A stretch of 64,000 bases of DNA, taken from UHGV virus genome UHGV-0112973; one strand, given 5' to 3'. Below are positions 36,061 through 44,763 of this stretch, one piece after another. How positions within the stretch are numbered: the first letter of the stretch is position 1; each line of letters starts with the position of its first letter. This stretch comes from a virus. The translations under genes were made by a program, and so were the position numbers. The notes beneath the pieces were generated by a model. The model worked only from the letters and a program-made list of their open reading frames with translations, searched no databases and was not told the DNA's origin.

Positions 36061-36257
36061 ATGTGTAAAAAACGACTGAAAGAAAAGCGGTGGTCCAGAC
36101 GCCGACAAAAGCACGAACTCGCAAACAAACGCCAAAGTTGGCAATGGCACGCGCTTTTCACGAAAAGAACACCCCGAGATATTGCGTTCGCTGGTGGGAA
36201 AACATTCCTGACCCACCTGAAGGCGCAATACATCAGGTTTTAAGCAGAGGAAAGACT

Positions 36258-36935
36258 ATGAATAACATGACAACGAAAGAGCTTTTTACGGCACTTCCAA
36301 AATACAAAAGCCATAAAACAGTTCGCGCCTCAAAAATCAAAGATATCGAAATTATCGCCCTAATGGATGTGGTCCTTTTTTGCAACATCGAAGTCGTTGA
36401 GCCAGAAGGGGTAAAAGTCCATGTTGATAAAATATTTTTGCAAAAACACCGACCAGAAATTGGCGGATATCTGGTCGCTTATGAGGACGGATCTCTGTCC
36501 TATTCACCAGAAAAAACATTTGAAGAAGGCTTTAGTCGGACTAACGACTTCTTCGAAAATGGGGTATCGCTCAGCATTGAAGGTCACAATGGGGTGACAT
36601 TCATTACAGCCAGGGACGTAACTATTTCTGCTGGCGGTATCGCTACTCTACAAGAAGAAATCGACCTTGAAGCAGCCGACTTTTCTGACGCGCTGATGTG
36701 GCTGAAGGATGGCAAGAAAGTTGCCCGACGCGGGTGGAACGGCGAAAACCAATTCTGCTGGCTGGTTCCTGAAGGACAGTACCCGGCACGAATGGAAGCC
36801 ATTAAGGGATATTTCCCCGGCGACCTCGTTCCGTATGGTGCTTATTTCGCCTTAAAAAATGCACAAGGTGTAGTTGTTCCGTGGGTTCCTTCTGTAGGCG
36901 ACTTACTGGCATGTGACTGGTTTGTAGTGGAGTGA
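36258..36935 (+). CDS. DUF2829 (Tad2-like) domain protein with N-terminal extension
   Basis: C-terminal ALMWLKDGKKVARRGWNG...VVPWVPSVGDLLACDWFVV matches the DUF2829 hallmark; ATG after AGAGGAAAG RBS. Confidence 0.5.
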   Translation: MNNMTTKELFTALPKYKSHKTVRASKIKDIEIIALMDVVLFCNIEVVEPEGVKVHVDKIFLQKHRPEIGGYLVAYEDGSLSYSPEKTFEEGFSRTNDFFENGVSLSIEGHNGVTFITARDVTISAGGIATLQEEIDLEAADFSDALMWLKDGKKVARRGWNGENQFCWLVPEGQYPARMEAIKGYFPGDLVPYGAYFALKNAQGVVVPWVPSVGDLLACDWFVVE

Positions 36936-36941
36936 TTTAAC

Positions 36942-37724
36942 GTGGAAAATACTAAAGCAATTCAATACCGCCTGCGTAATGGTCAGAGTGTCGAAGTGAC
37001 CATCAATAATGATGGAGTACCTGGCGAAAAAGTTTCTATCTCTGATCTGGCTATCGAAAAAACCATCATGTGCCACCTTGGCTTTACTGAAGAAGTGAGC
37101 AAAAAGCATGGTGTAGCAATCTGGAGCGCAATGGATACTGGTATGCGCAAATTCATTACTGCTCGTACCCCAGGGATGACCATGATGGACCTCATGCAGA
37201 TTGCGCCGCTGTTTGAATGTGAGCCTTTAGATGTATTCAGCAATCCAGCTATCTGCCAGCAGTTATATGGTGAGATGAAACTCGCGGTTACCCCCATTGT
37301 GCTGCATGAAGGATCGCTTGCTGGCGTGTGGAAAGTAGAGCGTATTTCAAGCTACATGCCTTTCCATGTCAACGGCGTAATCACTGGTGAAAATCAACCT
37401 GTTTCCGTTATAAAGTCAGACCTCAAGCGCGCAATTCTTGAAGCAAGTTGTCGAGTTGTCGGGCTGGGCAAACAGTCTTATGTTTCCTTCCCGGCTGGCC
37501 CTGAAGGCCCGGCAGAAATTCTGATTATGGATGCCGATCTGCTCTGGCAAATACAGTTTCTGATTGGCAAAAGCATCATCCGCGCTGAAGAACTCGATCA
37601 GTACATTACCTGCACGATGACGGATGAAGTCAAAAGTGTGGCTATAGCCAATGCCCGGAACCTATGTCGTGCTGCATTAACAGAACTGCAAGAAAACACC
37701 ACGGAAGAAGTGGAAAGCGATTAA
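36942..37724 (+). CDS. hypothetical protein
   Basis: 260 aa; GTG start; followed by a bidirectional terminator. Confidence 0.35.
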   Translation: MENTKAIQYRLRNGQSVEVTINNDGVPGEKVSISDLAIEKTIMCHLGFTEEVSKKHGVAIWSAMDTGMRKFITARTPGMTMMDLMQIAPLFECEPLDVFSNPAICQQLYGEMKLAVTPIVLHEGSLAGVWKVERISSYMPFHVNGVITGENQPVSVIKSDLKRAILEASCRVVGLGKQSYVSFPAGPEGPAEILIMDADLLWQIQFLIGKSIIRAEELDQYITCTMTDEVKSVAIANARNLCRAALTELQENTTEEVESD

Positions 37725-37726
37725 AA

Positions 37727-37750
37727 AAAATCCCGCCGACTGGCGGGATT
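37727..37750. terminator. bidirectional hairpin terminator (AAATCCCGCCGACTGGCGGGATTT)
   Basis: Perfect 10-bp stem flanked by an A-run and a T-rich run between convergent genes. Confidence 0.6.
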
Positions 37751-37753
37751 TCT

Positions 37754-38065
37754 TCAATATACGATCTGGTCTACATGATCACCAAAATCATCGTCGTCGT
37801 CGTCCTCATCGCCACCATCTACTGCTGGCCAATCAACAAACCAGCCAGCGTAAAGATGCAGCGTTCGGAGAACATCACTTGCGGGAGCATCAAGGGTGTT
37901 AACGAATCCCATATAGCTATTGGGATTTGCCCCAGCTATGGCTTCAGCGATCATGTCCTCGGTAATGTCACCGGAGATAATGCTTAAACGCCCGGAAACT
38001 TCTTCATTATCATCAAATTCGATAATGGCATCTCCACCTAATGGCGCTGCGATTTTAATCTGCAT
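37754..38065 (-). CDS. small highly acidic protein, last gene of the darA operon
   Basis: 103 aa; C-terminal DGGDEDDDDDDFGD; start overlaps ddrB stop by about 11 nt. Confidence 0.4.
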   Translation of the reverse strand: MQIKIAAPLGGDAIIEFDDNEEVSGRLSIISGDITEDMIAEAIAGANPNSYMGFVNTLDAPASDVLRTLHLYAGWFVDWPAVDGGDEDDDDDDFGDHVDQIVY

Positions 38066-41042
38066 TATTTAGCTCCTTTGCCACACCTAATAACAGTTCC
38101 AGCAATCCGTCACCATTCATCAGTGATGCGGCAGCGGCCTCTTTGTCATGATACAACTGAAGAGCCATAGAGAATACTTCCGTTGCTGACGTTTTGGAAA
38201 TAGTCGGTGATTTCTGCCGAATTTTCCCGGTGTTACTTACTGAGGCTGGCGGGTATACCTTCGCCATATAAATATTACTCAATCGAGATCTGAAGCACCA
38301 TTCAGGCTTGCCACGCCCACCGATATTGACGAAAGATGGCTTATCCCCTTCAACATTGGCCTTCAGGAATGACCGGGCTTTCTCTAACAAACCAGGGTTA
38401 CTGTACTCAAGATGATGACCCAGCTCGTGCCACAGTGCACTTGCATTTTCATCGTTCAAATTGACAGCAACAACACCATTTAGATTTGCATATGCCCTTC
38501 CCTGGTGGTGAACTACCTTTGATAAGGTCGATATTTTCCCGCCGGTCAGGCGATAAATATCAGCAAGTTCCTTGCGCAGGTCTATCCCACCATTCTGTCC
38601 AGCGCGAGCTTCTTCCACTTCTTCCGTGATAAAAGAGTCGGCCCACTCAAGAGCTTTTTCTTCAGATACGGATGAGTTTGCGATCGCACTGTTCATGGCA
38701 GATAACACTTTCTCGTGGACCGAACCCATACTTCGCTGATTCATTTGCCAGCGTGTCTGCGGGTTATATGAGAATCGCTTAAGTAGTTGGTCAAGCTGCT
38801 CAAGTTCTTCTTCACTGACATACTTTTTAGCCTCACCAATAATGCCAGGGAGAATATTGCCGTTAGGATTAAACGCTCGCGAAAGGAAGAGTTTCAGCGC
38901 CCCCATGCCCTCCGATGCTTCAATATCACCAATAACACGGTTAACAATGGCCGCACTCTTCGGATTAGCATCCGCCAACGCTCTGGCTACGATTTGCAGG
39001 GACGATACGACCTCACGCTGCATATCCGTCCTGATCTCATCAATAAACTCTGGCGTTATGCCGTGCTCTTTAAGGATATCCCTGCCTTCCGCCGTTACCC
39101 CATCGATATCACCGACATGTTTATTAACCTGACTTTGCAATGCCTTAAATGCCTTCAGAATTCCACGGGCATCATCAGCTTTACTAACGGCCTTCCTGAA
39201 TGCTGGCAAGAAGTCAGAGTTAACCTCATTTTGTTGATCGGCCCACTGAATGGAGGCTTCTTTCATCTCGTCCAGAGTCAGATCACCCAACGCGGTATGG
39301 TCTGTGAATATGAGCGACAACCTCTGAACCATTTCTGCCAATGGTGATGCCGAATGCGCCGCGCTAAGGAATGCTTTCACCCTGGTTGGGCGAATGGAAA
39401 ACCAGTCAATAGCTGGTGGCATATCTCCGTTTTTTATCGCCTGCGCTATCTCGTCAAAGCCATCGCGCCCAAGGGAGGATGCGTGATTTAACAAGCCGCG
39501 AAGTAACGAATTGCTGATACCGAATAATCGGCACCATTTTTTCACGTCGGCAACAGGCATTCGAACAAAATGCGCAAGCACTTGTACAAGCTGTTCATCC
39601 TGGGGATCTGTGCGGGAAAGCAGCCTGATCAGATGAATAATGTCTTTGATGCCGGATGCCCGATGTAATAGCAAACTGGTATACGGAGCAACACCGTTGT
39701 AACTACCGCCGGAAACGGACTCGAAAAGACCGCCGGATATCCCTTGCATGCCTTCGTTTTCCAGTTCCTGAGACACCTGGCGAAGGATATCCTGTAACGA
39801 CACATCACCACCGCCAAACATATCCCCCAGCGCCTGGCCCTGGTGCTGTAACTCATCATTGATACGTTGAGCCATCAATTTAAAGGCGGTGGCCATACGC
39901 TTCGCGCTACGGTTATTCGCGACGATGAACAACGCGAGCGCTTTCACTTCCGGGGCTGTTTCGCTGAACATATCCCCCTGAGCAATAACATCGATAATAT
40001 GTTGGCCTGACTCCTTCGATTGCCTTACCAGGTCTACCGCATCTTTCAATGCCGCCAGCGCCTTTTTATCGAGACTATCCGCTGTCTCAATACCATCAAC
40101 AATAGTTGTCACAGCCTGCTTGTGCGCTTCTCCTGATAAAGCCTGCATCTGGACAAAATCATTGGCTGCCGCATTAAGCGCCGTCAGAACATTACGCATA
40201 TCCGGATCAGGTTCTTCTGCAACCATCCTTACCAGGCGCGCATCCTTATATGCCTTGGCAAAGATCGCGTTTTGTATACGGTCTACAAGTTGCCGTGTTG
40301 GTCGCCCATCTTCCGTTACAAGGCCAGCAGCCTGTGTGGCACCAACTTGCGTCATGAATCCGCGAATAAACGCGTCATTACTGCGGCTAAGCAGATCTCC
40401 GCTTTCTGATGGGTTAAACAGCGCCATCATCGCCGGAGTTATGCTGTCAGCATCAACAAAAGCCTTTTCACTGGCTGCCATTTCCTGAAGATCAGAAATA
40501 TTTGAGTCCTTGGCAAACTGAACGCGGTCAACCTTAGTTAACCGGCGGCGCACCAGTACCGGAGCCGCCATTGATTCAACCTTTTCAGGTCGTATGCCGA
40601 ATTCGGTCGCATGATCAATCAGGTACTCACGATACCGATCCGCATTGCCGTCCTGATAGGCTTTGATGATCCCCATGGTCCGTCCATTACCTGACTCAAC
40701 GGCATTGTCCTCACCAATTATCGGCGCGCCATGGCTGGATAAACCGGAATCGGTAAGCTGGGCAGGACGCAAATCCTTGGATATCTGGTTGACCTGAAGA
40801 AGACTGGATGCGCGGGTCCGGTCGCGCGGCTGAAGTTCCTGGGGATAGTCAGGGTTAATTTTCCCGTCCAGAGTATTGGATACCAAAAGAGCTGAGGCAT
40901 CGACGATATCAAACGCTGTTTTTACCTCGTCTCCCTTCGCTGTCACCACATACGAAACCCGCCCGTAATTGGGCAGGTTTTTTAGCAGCTCGATCAGCGT
41001 TTCTATGCTGGTGGCCATTACCACCTGATCGCTTAAGCTCAT
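38055..41042 (-). CDS. ddrB: DdrB-like protein with HExxH motif
   Basis: 995 aa; follows ddrA/darA; C-terminal region contains WHELGHHLEY. Confidence 0.6.
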   Translation of the reverse strand: MSLSDQVVMATSIETLIELLKNLPNYGRVSYVVTAKGDEVKTAFDIVDASALLVSNTLDGKINPDYPQELQPRDRTRASSLLQVNQISKDLRPAQLTDSGLSSHGAPIIGEDNAVESGNGRTMGIIKAYQDGNADRYREYLIDHATEFGIRPEKVESMAAPVLVRRRLTKVDRVQFAKDSNISDLQEMAASEKAFVDADSITPAMMALFNPSESGDLLSRSNDAFIRGFMTQVGATQAAGLVTEDGRPTRQLVDRIQNAIFAKAYKDARLVRMVAEEPDPDMRNVLTALNAAANDFVQMQALSGEAHKQAVTTIVDGIETADSLDKKALAALKDAVDLVRQSKESGQHIIDVIAQGDMFSETAPEVKALALFIVANNRSAKRMATAFKLMAQRINDELQHQGQALGDMFGGGDVSLQDILRQVSQELENEGMQGISGGLFESVSGGSYNGVAPYTSLLLHRASGIKDIIHLIRLLSRTDPQDEQLVQVLAHFVRMPVADVKKWCRLFGISNSLLRGLLNHASSLGRDGFDEIAQAIKNGDMPPAIDWFSIRPTRVKAFLSAAHSASPLAEMVQRLSLIFTDHTALGDLTLDEMKEASIQWADQQNEVNSDFLPAFRKAVSKADDARGILKAFKALQSQVNKHVGDIDGVTAEGRDILKEHGITPEFIDEIRTDMQREVVSSLQIVARALADANPKSAAIVNRVIGDIEASEGMGALKLFLSRAFNPNGNILPGIIGEAKKYVSEEELEQLDQLLKRFSYNPQTRWQMNQRSMGSVHEKVLSAMNSAIANSSVSEEKALEWADSFITEEVEEARAGQNGGIDLRKELADIYRLTGGKISTLSKVVHHQGRAYANLNGVVAVNLNDENASALWHELGHHLEYSNPGLLEKARSFLKANVEGDKPSFVNIGGRGKPEWCFRSRLSNIYMAKVYPPASVSNTGKIRQKSPTISKTSATEVFSMALQLYHDKEAAAASLMNGDGLLELLLGVAKELNNAD

Positions 41043-41054
41043 CCCTGTTACGCC

Positions 41055-41420
41055 TTACTCTGCCTCTTTAATGTTGGCGGCTATCCATGCCGCCGTGTGC
41101 TGTTTAACCTGGTCCAGATCGATGTATGTGCCAACATATTGACTCAAGTCCTGCAACGTACCGATAAATGCATCGGTGCTCTGATCGACGAATTTATCAG
41201 CCAGGAAATCAGCAACCAGTTTTGGCACACCATCATGTACCGAAGGTTGTTTTTCCTCGCCACTACTGCCGCCGGACACACCGTACCCCATCTGTTGCAT
41301 GATCTGGTCAATTTCATCGCTGATATCCAGCAACTCCATGCCACTCGCGGTAGCCGCTTTGGACATCAGAGCATCCAACTTATCGCTGAGATCCATTAAC
41401 TCAATAGCTGATAGTGTCAT
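41055..41420 (-). CDS. ddrA: DdrA-like protein
   Basis: 121 aa; translationally coupled downstream of darA. Confidence 0.5.
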   Translation of the reverse strand: MTLSAIELMDLSDKLDALMSKAATASGMELLDISDEIDQIMQQMGYGVSGGSSGEEKQPSVHDGVPKLVADFLADKFVDQSTDAFIGTLQDLSQYVGTYIDLDQVKQHTAAWIAANIKEAE

Positions 41421-43336
41421 GCCGCTACCCCCGCTTTCTGGATTGCTACCAACAGATCAGCCAGGTGGCGAGCTGCGCCGTTAACCAGCTCTTCGTTTTC
41501 CTCAAAACGTCCGGCAGCCTGAAGGGCTGCAATCGCTTCCCGGACATTGCCCCGGGCGTTACGGATCTCCGCCATGTCAGTGCTTTGTATATCCATCACG
41601 TTATTGAGATATTCAATGGCTTTATTAGCCTCTGCATCTGCTTCGCTAACCGTTTCATCAGGCTGTGCCGGGGCCGGTTCTGGCTGAGTAATCTCACCGA
41701 CTTCGGCCTGCAATGCATTGATCATGCTCTGCACCATTTTCTCGGTGCCAGCGCCCCCAGGAAACGCAATATTGGGGAAAGTTTTTTGAAACTGAGTTTT
41801 CAGCATTACGCGGAACTCGTCTGGTGAGCTGGTGGCCAGCTCCAGAGCTTTTTGTGCATATTTGCCAAACGGACCATTAGTAAGTGTCTTCGCCAGGAAG
41901 TCGAAAGAATCCTCGCGAGGCAATAACTTCAGGTCGTACTCACTCATTTGCTGATCAGAAAGCGGGGTATCGTAAGTAGCAATGCCGTAGCGTGCATATT
42001 CATAATACGGGTCACCTTCATCAGGGCGCGGCAGAATTGCTTTGTTACCTTCAGGTATTGCGCCAGGGGCCGCCGGACGCATTTGCAGGGCATATCGATA
42101 TGCACCTACAGAGACTTCTGGTTCAGGCGAAGAGCTACCGGTATCCTCCGCTGGTTCAGGTTCGACGTTTTCCGGTTTATGTTCTTCTGGTTGGACCAGG
42201 TATTCCGATACATTACCCGCTTTATAGGCTTTAAACAGCTTGCCGATCGCATCTGCCATGTCCACACCCTGTATGGATTTAGCCTTGATCATGTATACGC
42301 TGCCATCCGGATCGGTTAACTGGATATACCCTTCGCCGCCCCCAATGAATTGCTTCATTGATGCTCCATTACTGAGCGTCACTTCCCCGTTCATATGCAT
42401 ACGATTTTTGATACTGGCAAGGCGATCCGTCAGCGCGCGCGAGTGCCCACCAGTCATCCCCGCTGGATCAATGGTATCGCGCCCACCTGTGCGATTGAGC
42501 TGATCAATCTCCGTCTGCAAACGCTCATTCTCTTCATAAAGAGAATCCGCTTCCGATGCAACAGCGTTAATTTTCTGCTCCAGATCTACCTTCTGCCCTT
42601 CTACCGCTGCCACCTGATCCGCGAGGTCGCTCATGGCATCCTCTTTCTGGTCACTGTCAGCCTGTAGTTGGGTTATTTCATCAACCAGGGCTTTTTTCTT
42701 CTTCTGCGCACGCTGGAATTTTGCCGAGTTTTTCTCTGCAAGGTTGGCAAGTTTCATGGTGACCTGCGCCAGCGTCATATCACGTCCACTCATCGGAGCA
42801 ACGGTGTGAGTAACGTCTTTTTTATTCAGTAAGAACTGGAAAGCAACCAGCGTATCGCTATTGGTGATCCGGTTTTCCGCTGTCGGGCTATGAAACAGAA
42901 TGCTGATAGTCTGACCATCACTGAGCGGAATAATGGCTGGCAGGACCGGCAGCCCGTTAACGTTACGTGCCCGGCCAATTTCAGCACCGCCGATCGCGCG
43001 CGCGCCGCTCTGGGCCACCTCCCCCGTTTTATCACTCCCCGCAGAGATTCCGGTACCATTCAGCTTCTGGTTCAATGCCCGGACAAATGCCTGCATGGTC
43101 CGGTGTAACTGCAAACGAGTAGAACTAATCGCCTCCAGTAAATCCGTAGCACACCAGTGGATCGGCGTGTCATAGAAGAACGTAGCCTCGATTTCCTCCA
43201 GGGTGTTGGATTCCGTCATCAGATAGCGGTCCTCACCGGCCATTAATGCGCGATATTCATCATCAGTCACTGGCGGGGGAAGCACGTCAAGCCCAGGCTT
43301 GATCGTCACCCCTTTATTGATATTTAACTGTTCCAT
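41417..43336 (-). CDS. darA: DarA-like internal head/antirestriction protein
   Basis: 639 aa; position between hdf and ddrA; coiled-coil central region. Confidence 0.65.
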   Translation of the reverse strand: MEQLNINKGVTIKPGLDVLPPPVTDDEYRALMAGEDRYLMTESNTLEEIEATFFYDTPIHWCATDLLEAISSTRLQLHRTMQAFVRALNQKLNGTGISAGSDKTGEVAQSGARAIGGAEIGRARNVNGLPVLPAIIPLSDGQTISILFHSPTAENRITNSDTLVAFQFLLNKKDVTHTVAPMSGRDMTLAQVTMKLANLAEKNSAKFQRAQKKKKALVDEITQLQADSDQKEDAMSDLADQVAAVEGQKVDLEQKINAVASEADSLYEENERLQTEIDQLNRTGGRDTIDPAGMTGGHSRALTDRLASIKNRMHMNGEVTLSNGASMKQFIGGGEGYIQLTDPDGSVYMIKAKSIQGVDMADAIGKLFKAYKAGNVSEYLVQPEEHKPENVEPEPAEDTGSSSPEPEVSVGAYRYALQMRPAAPGAIPEGNKAILPRPDEGDPYYEYARYGIATYDTPLSDQQMSEYDLKLLPREDSFDFLAKTLTNGPFGKYAQKALELATSSPDEFRVMLKTQFQKTFPNIAFPGGAGTEKMVQSMINALQAEVGEITQPEPAPAQPDETVSEADAEANKAIEYLNNVMDIQSTDMAEIRNARGNVREAIAALQAAGRFEENEELVNGAARHLADLLVAIQKAGVAA

Positions 43337-43337
43337 G

Positions 43338-43940
43338 TTAATTTCCTGCTTTCAGTTGCTTAAGACGACGTTTGAGTTCGCCATTCCGTGCCTTTTCGTT
43401 ATTGAGTCGGCCCGTCTCCTTATCCAGCTTCGCCCGCAAATCAGTGATCTGCTGTTGATTGAAAGACACCGAATTCTGCGCGGACTTATAAGCGGCAACC
43501 ACCTGAGCATTCCGCTGTTTTGCTTCTTGCAGGCGCTGAAAGTTGGATTTAACTGCCGGTTTCTTGTCTACCGGATTGGCAACACGCTTCGCTTTGGCGA
43601 TCAGTGATTTCTGGAATTTTGCGGAGTTTTTGCGGGCCGCCTGTCCCATGACGGTACCAAGCGTCTTGATATCCGGCGACTGAGCGTTAGGAATAGCTTT
43701 TCCATTCAGTTTCACAGACGATATATCGCCAGTATCGTTTACCTGTATGGCAAGAATTTGTCCGTCGTTAAGAACCAGCTTTGCGGTTTTAACTTTAACG
43801 CCATCTTTCGTTGTTGCGCGGTTGCTGGAGTCAACCTCAATTACCGTAACACCGGTTTTATTGATCGCCGCGATAAGGGATTTCAGCCCCTTTTCATTAA
43901 CCTGGTCAAAATCGACCGTTGCATACTTATTTTTCGTCAT
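43338..43940 (-). CDS. hdf: Hdf-like protein
   Basis: About 200 aa basic protein immediately upstream of darA. Confidence 0.5.
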   Translation of the reverse strand: MTKNKYATVDFDQVNEKGLKSLIAAINKTGVTVIEVDSSNRATTKDGVKVKTAKLVLNDGQILAIQVNDTGDISSVKLNGKAIPNAQSPDIKTLGTVMGQAARKNSAKFQKSLIAKAKRVANPVDKKPAVKSNFQRLQEAKQRNAQVVAAYKSAQNSVSFNQQQITDLRAKLDKETGRLNNEKARNGELKRRLKQLKAGN

Positions 43941-44370
43941 CTGACACATCCTGTGCGAGATTTATTACGTAACTTCTGCGGATTTGCTGAGTAACAGGGA
44001 AAATCCGATACAACGGGTTAATGAACGAGTCGCCATGCGTAACCATGATGTTGAAATGCCACAGTCGCTCTCCTTTACCCATATATTCAGTGGGTATGTA
44101 CAACCATTCACTGTTTTCGCCCTGTTCAGCCGACGTCAGACAACGTTGTTCACCTTCAATCACTGTCGTCGGCTTCTGAACATCGCGGATCCAATATCTG
44201 ACCGTTGCGCCGCGCAAAAACGGGAATTTAGACCGGTACTTGAACGGCACCCGGATGAAACCCGGTTTAATTTCCACATCACCAAGTTCTAAATGCGTGA
44301 TGTCCTTGCGTTTTAGCAAATAGCGATCGGCTAAGGCTAACGCAAGAACGCATACACCCCAGCCAATCAT
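43927..44370 (-). CDS. lydB: LydB-like antiholin
   Basis: 147 aa; coupled to the lydA-like holin gene. Confidence 0.45.
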   Translation of the reverse strand: MIGWGVCVLALALADRYLLKRKDITHLELGDVEIKPGFIRVPFKYRSKFPFLRGATVRYWIRDVQKPTTVIEGEQRCLTSAEQGENSEWLYIPTEYMGKGERLWHFNIMVTHGDSFINPLYRIFPVTQQIRRSYVINLAQDVSDDEK

Positions 44371-44696
44371 TTCCCGCCTCCCTTTTTCACCAAACTTGTA
44401 AGAACATTCAGAATGCTATCGATATTCACTCGTTTCATCCCTGAAATCACCTCATGACCGTTATTGCTGGCTATCGTTACCATTAAGTACGTAATTGATA
44501 ACTCCCAGCCCTCGTGTTGCCCCAATAGGTACGCCACCGCGCCAGCTGTCACTGCAACAAAGATCTCCGTAACCAATCCCAACAAATTGCCAGACTGGCG
44601 ACCGTCTCGGACATCCATCAGGAACGTGCCTATCCCACCAATTACTGAAAGCAGGAGCGCAATAGCAACTGGAGCTAATTCCTGTGTGTCAAGCAC
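44367..44696 (-). CDS. lydA: LydA-like holin
   Basis: 109 aa with hydrophobic helices (LAPVAIALLLSVIGGIGTFL..., FVAVTAGAVAYLLG). Confidence 0.5.
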   Translation of the reverse strand: MLDTQELAPVAIALLLSVIGGIGTFLMDVRDGRQSGNLLGLVTEIFVAVTAGAVAYLLGQHEGWELSITYLMVTIASNNGHEVISGMKRVNIDSILNVLTSLVKKGGGK

Positions 44697-44763
44697 AAGT
44701 TCCCTCCTACGTTGTCAGGAGGTAATGGTATGCAAAGTAACTTCTCAACCGGTCATTTGTTGC

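Follow-up and report, generated by a model that had tools for sequence, protein, structure and literature searches.

The acidic protein Hxr accompanies the HExxH module of DdrB in P1-like phage-plasmids and may be its dedicated partner

The Dar anti-restriction system of bacteriophage P1 has six named components, Hdf, DarA, DdrA, DdrB, Ulx and DarB, and Hxr is not among them (PMC9024508; PMC12810830). All six are listed in the P1 virion proteome, in which trypsin digestion and a threshold of at least two unique peptides gave 27 proteins, and Hxr is not on that list (PMC9024508). DdrB is needed for the incorporation of DarB and Ulx (PMC9024508, Table 1; PMC12810830), and it has been described as a "polyvalent" protein that combines an N-terminal DdrB-type ParB domain with a C-terminal zincin-like metallopeptidase (Iyer et al., 2017; PMC5512222). 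Reportedly, DdrB is trimmed to approximately 76 kDa ahead of packaging, and its own C-terminal peptidase is suspected of making the cut (PMC5512222). The P1 reference record contains hxr as P1_gp021 (YP_006490.1) and has labelled it "possible repressor; homolog of Xre" since 2004. Our literature searches turned up no study of Hxr function.

The window analysed here is a stretch of 64,000 nucleotides from UHGV virus genome UHGV-0112973. In comparisons with phage records by megablast and tblastn, the stretch shares 99.9% identity with Salmonella phage SJ46 and 97-99% with P1, P7, RCS47, JL22 and phi456. On its minus strand, at 37754-38065, lies a 103-aa ORF with an ATG start and a TGA stop, whose product has an Asp-rich C-terminus (...DGGDEDDDDDDFGDHVDQIVY), exactly as the initial annotation had described it. 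Judged by its sequence, this ORF is hxr, the orthologue of P1_gp021, in a P1/SJ46-like phage-plasmid: Hxr of P1 and its copies in P7, SJ46, RCS47, JL22 and phi456 are the same gene, with 98-100% protein identity, the same position after ddrB and the same overlap with it, and they do not differ in substance, the Asp run having six residues in the window allele and five in that of P1. The homolog downstream of ddrB that the initial annotation proposed to look for in P1 is present there and already bears the name hxr; as a gene, hxr is not new but known and annotated in P1. The features of the locus are as follows.

37723-37753, unstranded: intrinsic terminator hairpin (stem 37730-37737 / 37742-37749), flanked on opposite sides by A8 and by a T-rich run; closes both the darA operon and a convergent 260-aa ORF
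37754-38065, minus strand: hxr coding sequence, 103 aa plus TGA; annotated as hxr in P1, SJ46, RCS47, JL22 and phi456
37757-37825, minus strand: polyacidic tail of Hxr, residues 81-103, predicted to be disordered
37787-37804, minus strand: Asp run D88-D93, made of GAC/GAT repeats and length-polymorphic
37820-38065, minus strand: predicted folded alpha/beta domain of Hxr, residues 1-82
38055-38065, minus strand: 11-nt overlap of the ddrB end and the hxr start, a putative site of translational coupling
38073-38078, minus strand: Shine-Dalgarno sequence AAGGAG, 7 nt 5' of the hxr ATG
38055-41042, minus strand: ddrB, 995 aa, with an N-terminal DdrB-ParB domain (aa 36-167; 40542-40937) and a C-terminal HExxH module (HELGH at 38415-38429)
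41055-41420, minus strand: ddrA, cistron upstream of ddrB in the same operon
41417-43336, minus strand: darA, upstream cistron of the same operon
43338-43949, minus strand: hdf, upstream cistron of the same operon
43927-44370, minus strand: lydB, upstream cistron of the same operon
44367-44696, minus strand: lydA, upstream cistron of the same operon
44725-44743, minus strand: late promoter LPdar (-22 box and -10)

The operon reads LPdar-lydA-lydB-hdf-darA-ddrA-ddrB-hxr-terminator, with hxr as its seventh and last cistron, so that hxr shares a late operon and promoter with the P1 Dar system (Hdf, DarA, DdrA, DdrB, Ulx, DarB). LPdar in the window is an exact match to the P1 annotation, with 0 matches expected by chance, and the 995-aa ORF upstream of hxr is DdrB (Pfam ddrB-ParB, E 3e-39; phrog_2299; 98-99% identity to DdrB of P1 and SJ46). 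The earlier placement of the ORF as the last cistron of an antirestriction operon, here the late, capsid-related darA operon, holds, as does the claim that it starts inside the last codons of ddrB: the hxr ATG (38065-38063) lies 8 nt before the ddrB TAA stop (38057-38055), which creates the 11-nt overlap, and the AAGGAG upstream of it falls within the conserved Lys-Glu codons of the DdrB C-terminus. In four relatives whose Hxr is 30-45% identical (L004, L005, L006 and L008), hxr overlaps the ddrB stop by 11-14 nt, AAGGAG or AAGGAA occupies the same site, and a GC-rich hairpin follows the hxr stop; the gene beyond hxr and hairpin differs in each of these four distant elements (a MqsA/RelE pair, ssb, an Arc-like gene and a CHAP gene). 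The arrangement, whose possible absence from related phages the initial annotation had considered, is thus conserved in distant relatives.

Three nt past the hxr stop, the minus strand forms the hairpin AUCCCGCC-AGUC-GGCGGGAU followed by U8, with a folding energy of -21.6 kcal/mol (z -4.76; 0 of 200 shuffles as stable). This hairpin was not among the listings of a simple terminator scan. On the plus strand, UUUCUUC comes after the hairpin, which there terminates the convergent 260-aa ORF ending at 37724. What had been called a strong bidirectional terminator is indeed a hairpin at the end of the ORF for which activity in both directions is reasonable, the minus direction being the stronger of the two (U8 versus UUUCUUC). 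An antisense ORF of 107 aa (37664-37987, plus strand) crosses this hairpin and turns the Asp run into poly-Val; this ORF probably just shadows hxr rather than being a gene of its own. On the same strand, the window is without the IS1 that splits the P1 isaA/isaB region (L001 3324-5887), and two intact ORFs of 281 and 260 aa fill the IS1-free interval 36090-37724, as in SJ46. The 260-aa ORF matches phrog_2326, which has no assigned function. The 281-aa ORF (36090-36935, plus strand) has ssb on one side and the 260-aa ORF on the other; its product carries a Tad2-like domain at the C-terminus (Thoeris anti-defence 2-like, PF11195; residues 197-280, E 2.6e-22), which suggests that it is another candidate anti-defence gene beside the Dar operon.

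Several measures indicate that hxr is a real gene under purifying selection. The protein matches phrog_2292 over its full length (residues 1-103 versus profile positions 1-105; E 3.2e-60) and is 98.8-100% identical to proteins annotated as Hxr, the most remote homologues are approximately 30% identical, dN/dS by the Nei-Gojobori method is 0.14-0.33 for four pairs whose dS is about 1, and the frame is intact in 78 of 80 near-identical P1-like IMG/VR contigs despite the length-variable Asp run; for these reasons the ORF is more than a product of chance. An exhaustive HMMER search of 1.84 billion representatives, together with two profile searches, returned a family of proteins of 95-109 aa, all annotated as "hypothetical", whose genes lie on P1-like phage-plasmids (contigs of approximately 80-97 kb) from Escherichia, Klebsiella, Citrobacter, Cronobacter, Enterobacter, Rosenbergiella, Serratia, Pantoea and Salmonella. 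The extension of the Hxr family to several enterobacterial P1-like lineages is new here. Among domain fusions that might hint at a function, only tandem duplications of the Hxr domain were found, in proteins of 184 aa (P0015) and 187 aa (P0050); in P0015 the polyacidic tail is kept only by the second copy. We discarded three long repeat proteins recovered by the exhaustive search (P0021, P0024 and P0026) as apparent artefacts of composition or repeats. The most divergent P1-type hxr (P0010; L003 1-2688; 63% identity) has a TTG start and lies in a decayed prophage remnant, in which the last ddrB codons alone survive upstream of hxr and a DinI gene and transposase-like sequence are found nearby.

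Hxr contains 18 Asp, 6 Glu, 1 Lys and 2 Arg, so that 24 of its 103 residues are acidic and the net charge is -21 (pI of about 4.05), and its earlier description as a highly acidic small protein is borne out. Based on an alignment of 22 sequences, AlphaFold2 predicts that residues 1-82 fold into an alpha/beta domain of the topology strand-strand-strand-helix-helix-strand (block means of pLDDT 68-89; five consistent models at pLDDT 72-76), and an earlier model from five sequences agrees. The residues that are invariant in the alignment (G53, V65, L66, R67, W75, W79 and P80) are hydrophobic or aromatic, plus one Arg, and approximately six acidic columns are conserved within the fold. The tail (residues 81-103) is predicted to be disordered, with pLDDT below 50 at 83-86, 91-95 and 97-103; it has no Lys or Arg, accounts for 11 of the 21 net negative charges and ends I-V-Y. 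The Asp run within it varies from 4 to 8 residues among 78 IMG/VR P1-like contigs, always in frame, and a few hxr alleles swap the tail end for ...DEEGFSDETVNQLLY. Each of the 22 family members has a net charge between -11 and -22 and a tail of 20-25 residues after a W-x-x-x-W-P motif (net -7 to -14, no Lys or Arg), and most tails finish with a hydrophobic residue and Asn or Tyr (IVN, VVN, IVY). The composition of the tail is conserved, its sequence is not. A PDB sequence search with Hxr gave nothing at E <= 10 and a Foldseek search of the model against BFVD gave nothing at E <= 0.001, and the predicted fold has no match among solved structures.

These properties are at odds with the published label. 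The P1 record bases the label on 28% identity over approximately 58 residues to an Xre repressor, and the designation has since passed into the records of SJ46, RCS47, JL22 and others. A Pfam search of Hxr returned 0 families at E <= 0.1, and so no HTH_3, HTH_19 or HTH_31, and an NCBIfam search likewise returned 0 families; the model does not show the all-alpha five-helix fold and basic DNA-binding surface of an Xre-type protein. Because Hxr matches no HTH profile, is predicted to have a beta-rich fold and combines a mere three basic residues with a net charge of -21, we give virtually no credence to an Xre-like transcriptional repressor and conclude that the published Xre-homolog label on hxr is wrong, a point newly recognised here. 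P1 is a workhorse phage, and the wrong label has stood for two decades and spread through the annotations of P1-like phage-plasmids.

The comparison of related loci links Hxr to one particular part of DdrB. Hxr is present in 20 of 20 phage records with a full-length DdrB, and P1-like elements from Klebsiella, Cronobacter, Rosenbergiella, Citrobacter, Serratia and Pantoea retain hxr alongside hdf, darA, ddrA and ddrB. Phage D6 has kept hdf, darA and ddrA together with a ddrB of 454 aa, which corresponds to residues 1-454 or so, the highly conserved ParB half; it is without the C-terminal half of DdrB and without Hxr. In D6 (L010 4992-7416), the 454-aa ddrB is followed by orf24 (185 aa), by orf23, which encodes a basic 110-aa protein with a signal-peptide-like N-terminus, and then by the portal gene. 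We used the alignment of the DdrB C-terminus to scan one genome per species. An acidic ORF of 101-109 aa (net -14 to -20) was found to overlap or abut the stop of an HExxH-ending ORF in Serratia, Pantoea, Rosenbergiella and Chimaeribacter; the Serratia ORF is homologous to Hxr (hhalign E 9e-7, probability 91%). In 'Candidatus Pantoea alvi', the gene upstream encodes 530 aa, which align to DdrB residues 775-992 alone, without a ParB domain. In a Desulfovibrio MAG, the HExxH module (581 aa) and the ParB domain (591 aa) are encoded by separate genes, and it is the HExxH gene, rather than the ParB gene, that an acidic ORF of 119 aa (net -17; tail ...DDLSDFDADEEGDDEDSFSGEQRIY) abuts on the 3' side; similarity between this ORF and Hxr was not detectable. 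The Desulfovibrio locus (L020 330-7413) represents a Dar-like operon far outside Enterobacterales, with genes for hdf-like, darA-like (DarA_N + LPD3), 127-aa, 581-aa HExxH, 119-aa acidic, 110-aa and 591-aa DdrB-ParB proteins.

A distant alignment of the HExxH module led to a collection of 54 diverse IMG/VR loci, 49 of which have a co-directional ORF at the stop of the HExxH ORF, usually with an overlap of 1-23 nt. Small acidic ORFs (at most 150 aa, net charge of -10 or below) make up 18 of the 49 ORFs in this slot; among the other small genes, taken as background, 18 of 157 are of this kind (Fisher p 1.3e-4). Starting from the Hxr alignment, an HMM was iterated over the 4978 six-frame ORFs of the 54 loci and converged with 14 matches, all 14 directly 3' of an HExxH-module ORF. 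Hxr-family genes also stand behind ParB-less HExxH ORFs of 530-566 aa (L016, L116, L130, L132 and L145); a further Hxr-family locus, L019, lies on a cut contig and was left out of this count of ParB absence. The same coupled slot is used by another family, 19 distinct sequences of approximately 86-138 aa that are less acidic (net -2 to -16) and without a long tail, many of them ending ...SYDPGIPQGAVT; its members were found among L106-L156 (e.g. L126, L139 and L140) and have no Pfam or PHROG match. Homology between the Hxr family and this family (cluster 0) was not demonstrable (hhalign E 0.008, probability 5%). On this comparative evidence, we conclude that it is the C-terminal HExxH module of DdrB to which Hxr is linked, and neither the ParB domain nor the operon as a whole. 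The recognition of the Hxr family as a conserved, apparently translationally coupled companion of the DdrB peptidase module is new here.

In alignments of the DdrB C-terminus the motif WHExGHHxE is invariant. The module (residues 775-995, approximately; 38055-38720, minus strand) was not recognised by Pfam-A and PDB profiles, the only match being a weak one to Reprolysin (E 0.003) in one of six members, and it is without a structural or curated-family anchor; its assignment as a peptidase therefore rests on the earlier analysis (PMC5512222) and on the invariant motif. Electrostatic complementarity between Hxr and the module was considered and not found, the module being about neutral (pI 5.4-9.2).

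We propose, with a probability of roughly 45%, that Hxr is a dedicated binding partner of the C-terminal metallopeptidase module of DdrB, probably an inhibitor or a chaperone. Judging from the conserved overlap and the Shine-Dalgarno sequence, ribosomes that end ddrB would re-initiate on hxr and produce both proteins in roughly equal amounts. Hxr would bind the zincin-like WHExGHHxE module during the synthesis of DdrB and would act as a latency factor or chaperone, so that the protease module is restrained, or correctly folded, while DdrB is processed and loaded into the procapsid with the other Dar proteins. On this reading the polyanionic tail would be a lineage-specific extra, and Hxr would most likely stay with the cleaved C-terminal fragment of DdrB, outside the head. 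The overlap-coupled output, expected at approximately 1:1, the strict pairing with the module and a size of approximately 100 aa are all typical of a dedicated partner; it is from this association that we infer binding, inhibition or chaperoning, and the location of Hxr. Small cognate inhibitors encoded beside proteases are a familiar pattern, exemplified by staphopain and staphostatin and by serralysin with Inh/APRin. By analogy with these pairs, Hxr is likewise about 100 aa long, encoded immediately 3' of a protease module with which it would be co-expressed, and apparently dedicated to it across lineages. We saw no similarity between the Hxr model and known inhibitors of proteases. Since a family that is not demonstrably homologous occupies the same position elsewhere, the positional signal may in part stem from conservation of the slot itself and not of a single function.

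The absence of Hxr from the virion proteome would fit a partner that is not packaged, and the portion of the supplement of that study accessible to us does not name hxr (PMC9024508). This negative is weak owing to the few usable tryptic peptides: Hxr yields peptides of 4, 22, 41 and 36 residues only, the last of which is extremely acidic, and one is of convenient size. The peptide IAAPLGGDAIIEFDDNEEVSGR is a candidate target for parallel-reaction monitoring. The position of hxr in the operon, beside genes for packaged proteins, fits co-packaging of Hxr equally well.

The reading of the initial annotation takes Hxr for a polyanionic DNA mimic in the manner of Ocr or ArdA. On this view it travels in the capsid alongside the Dar proteins and, once injected into the new host, blocks type I or other restriction or DNA-binding defence proteins. 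Ocr (T7 gp0.3), ArdA and Hxr are all small, very acidic (pI of about 4) and derived from a mobile element with anti-restriction functions; acidity is a property of every family member, and hxr ends a late-promoter operon that encodes head-internal anti-restriction proteins. The likeness is one of negative-charge density; we detected no homology or fold similarity to Ocr, which is an all-alpha elongated dimer, to ArdA or to other solved mimics. Half of the charge of Hxr lies in a disordered tail that varies in sequence and length, few acidic positions of the fold are conserved, and it is hydrophobic and aromatic residues plus one Arg that are invariant. Hxr is also missing from the 27 virion proteins, for what this negative is worth, and hxr follows the HExxH module of DdrB through rearrangements, for which a free-standing mimic has no need; we therefore consider the mimic unlikely. 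Genetic data speak little to the issue. Strain BW25113 carries hsdR514 and does not restrict. The genome-wide CRISPRi screen that scores hxr as non-essential used plating on BW25113 and is consequently silent on anti-restriction (PMC10695390; that paper cites Piya et al., 2017, for hxr being non-essential). The same finding, that knock-down of hxr leaves P1 plating unaffected (PMC10695390), does count against a helper in head assembly or ejection, a transient scaffold-like polyanion of the procapsid that would aid the loading of DdrB, DarB and Ulx and then be displaced by DNA or degraded. Such a helper would be at home in a late operon with the head-size determinants Hdf and DarA, would accord with the need for DdrB in the incorporation of DarB and Ulx and with the absence of Hxr from mature virions (PMC9024508), and could be expelled by packaged DNA through its acidic disordered tail. 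Taken alone, a helper leaves the HExxH-specific position of hxr unexplained, and if it acted through the module it would merge with the binding-partner proposal; as a separate explanation it appears distinctly unlikely.

The tail also invites an explanation in which adjacency to ddrB is a mere expression slot and Hxr is a late cytoplasmic factor with a target unrelated to DdrB, its tail competing, for example, for a host protein that binds DNA or the SSB tail. Acidic tails with hydrophobic ends are a known type of protein-binding motif, as in the C-terminal tip of SSB. The Hxr tail is reminiscent of this type, the ssb product of the window itself ends DFDDDIPF, and a non-homologous family fills the post-HExxH slot elsewhere. 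Yet the sequence of the Hxr tail is unconserved and does not resemble the SSB tip, and the loss of Hxr with the C-terminal half of DdrB in D6, its retention beside HExxH-only genes and the conserved overlap geometry argue for a specific link, which makes an unrelated target very unlikely in our estimation. In SSB, T7 gp2.5 and HMGB1, acidic disordered C-terminal tails occupy DNA-binding sites and regulate the DNA-binding domain of the same protein. Like them, Hxr has an acidic tail that is conserved in composition, variable in sequence and hydrophobic at its end; unlike them, it is without a DNA-binding domain of its own, so that any target of its tail would be in trans. A broader and speculative extension, which we likewise hold to be unlikely, is that Hxr-like proteins form a widespread class, as yet unrecognised, of small trans-acting regulators of the metallopeptidase by which injected "polyvalent" phage proteins are processed, and that the polyacidic tail gained in the P1 lineage doubles as a nucleic-acid mimic, with Hxr entering the head together with DdrB and being released on injection against a DNA-binding host defence. 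Overall, the comparative data point to the metallopeptidase module of DdrB, and not to restriction enzymes, as the partner of Hxr.

The Dar system of P1 is a textbook case of capsid-delivered anti-restriction, and hxr is a conserved, uncharacterised cistron of its darA operon. If the regulator were also a mimic that enters the head, Hxr would be a seventh, overlooked Dar component with a new fold, and action of the acidic tail on host proteins would, if it occurs, bring a new fold into the anti-defence repertoire. For Hxr as a binding partner of DdrB, the tracking of the peptidase end of DdrB by hxr through split, truncated and rearranged forms of ddrB provides a concrete and cheap hypothesis for how the processing and loading of DdrB may be controlled; it also suggests that a small dedicated partner is a common companion of the metallopeptidase in "polyvalent" injected proteins.
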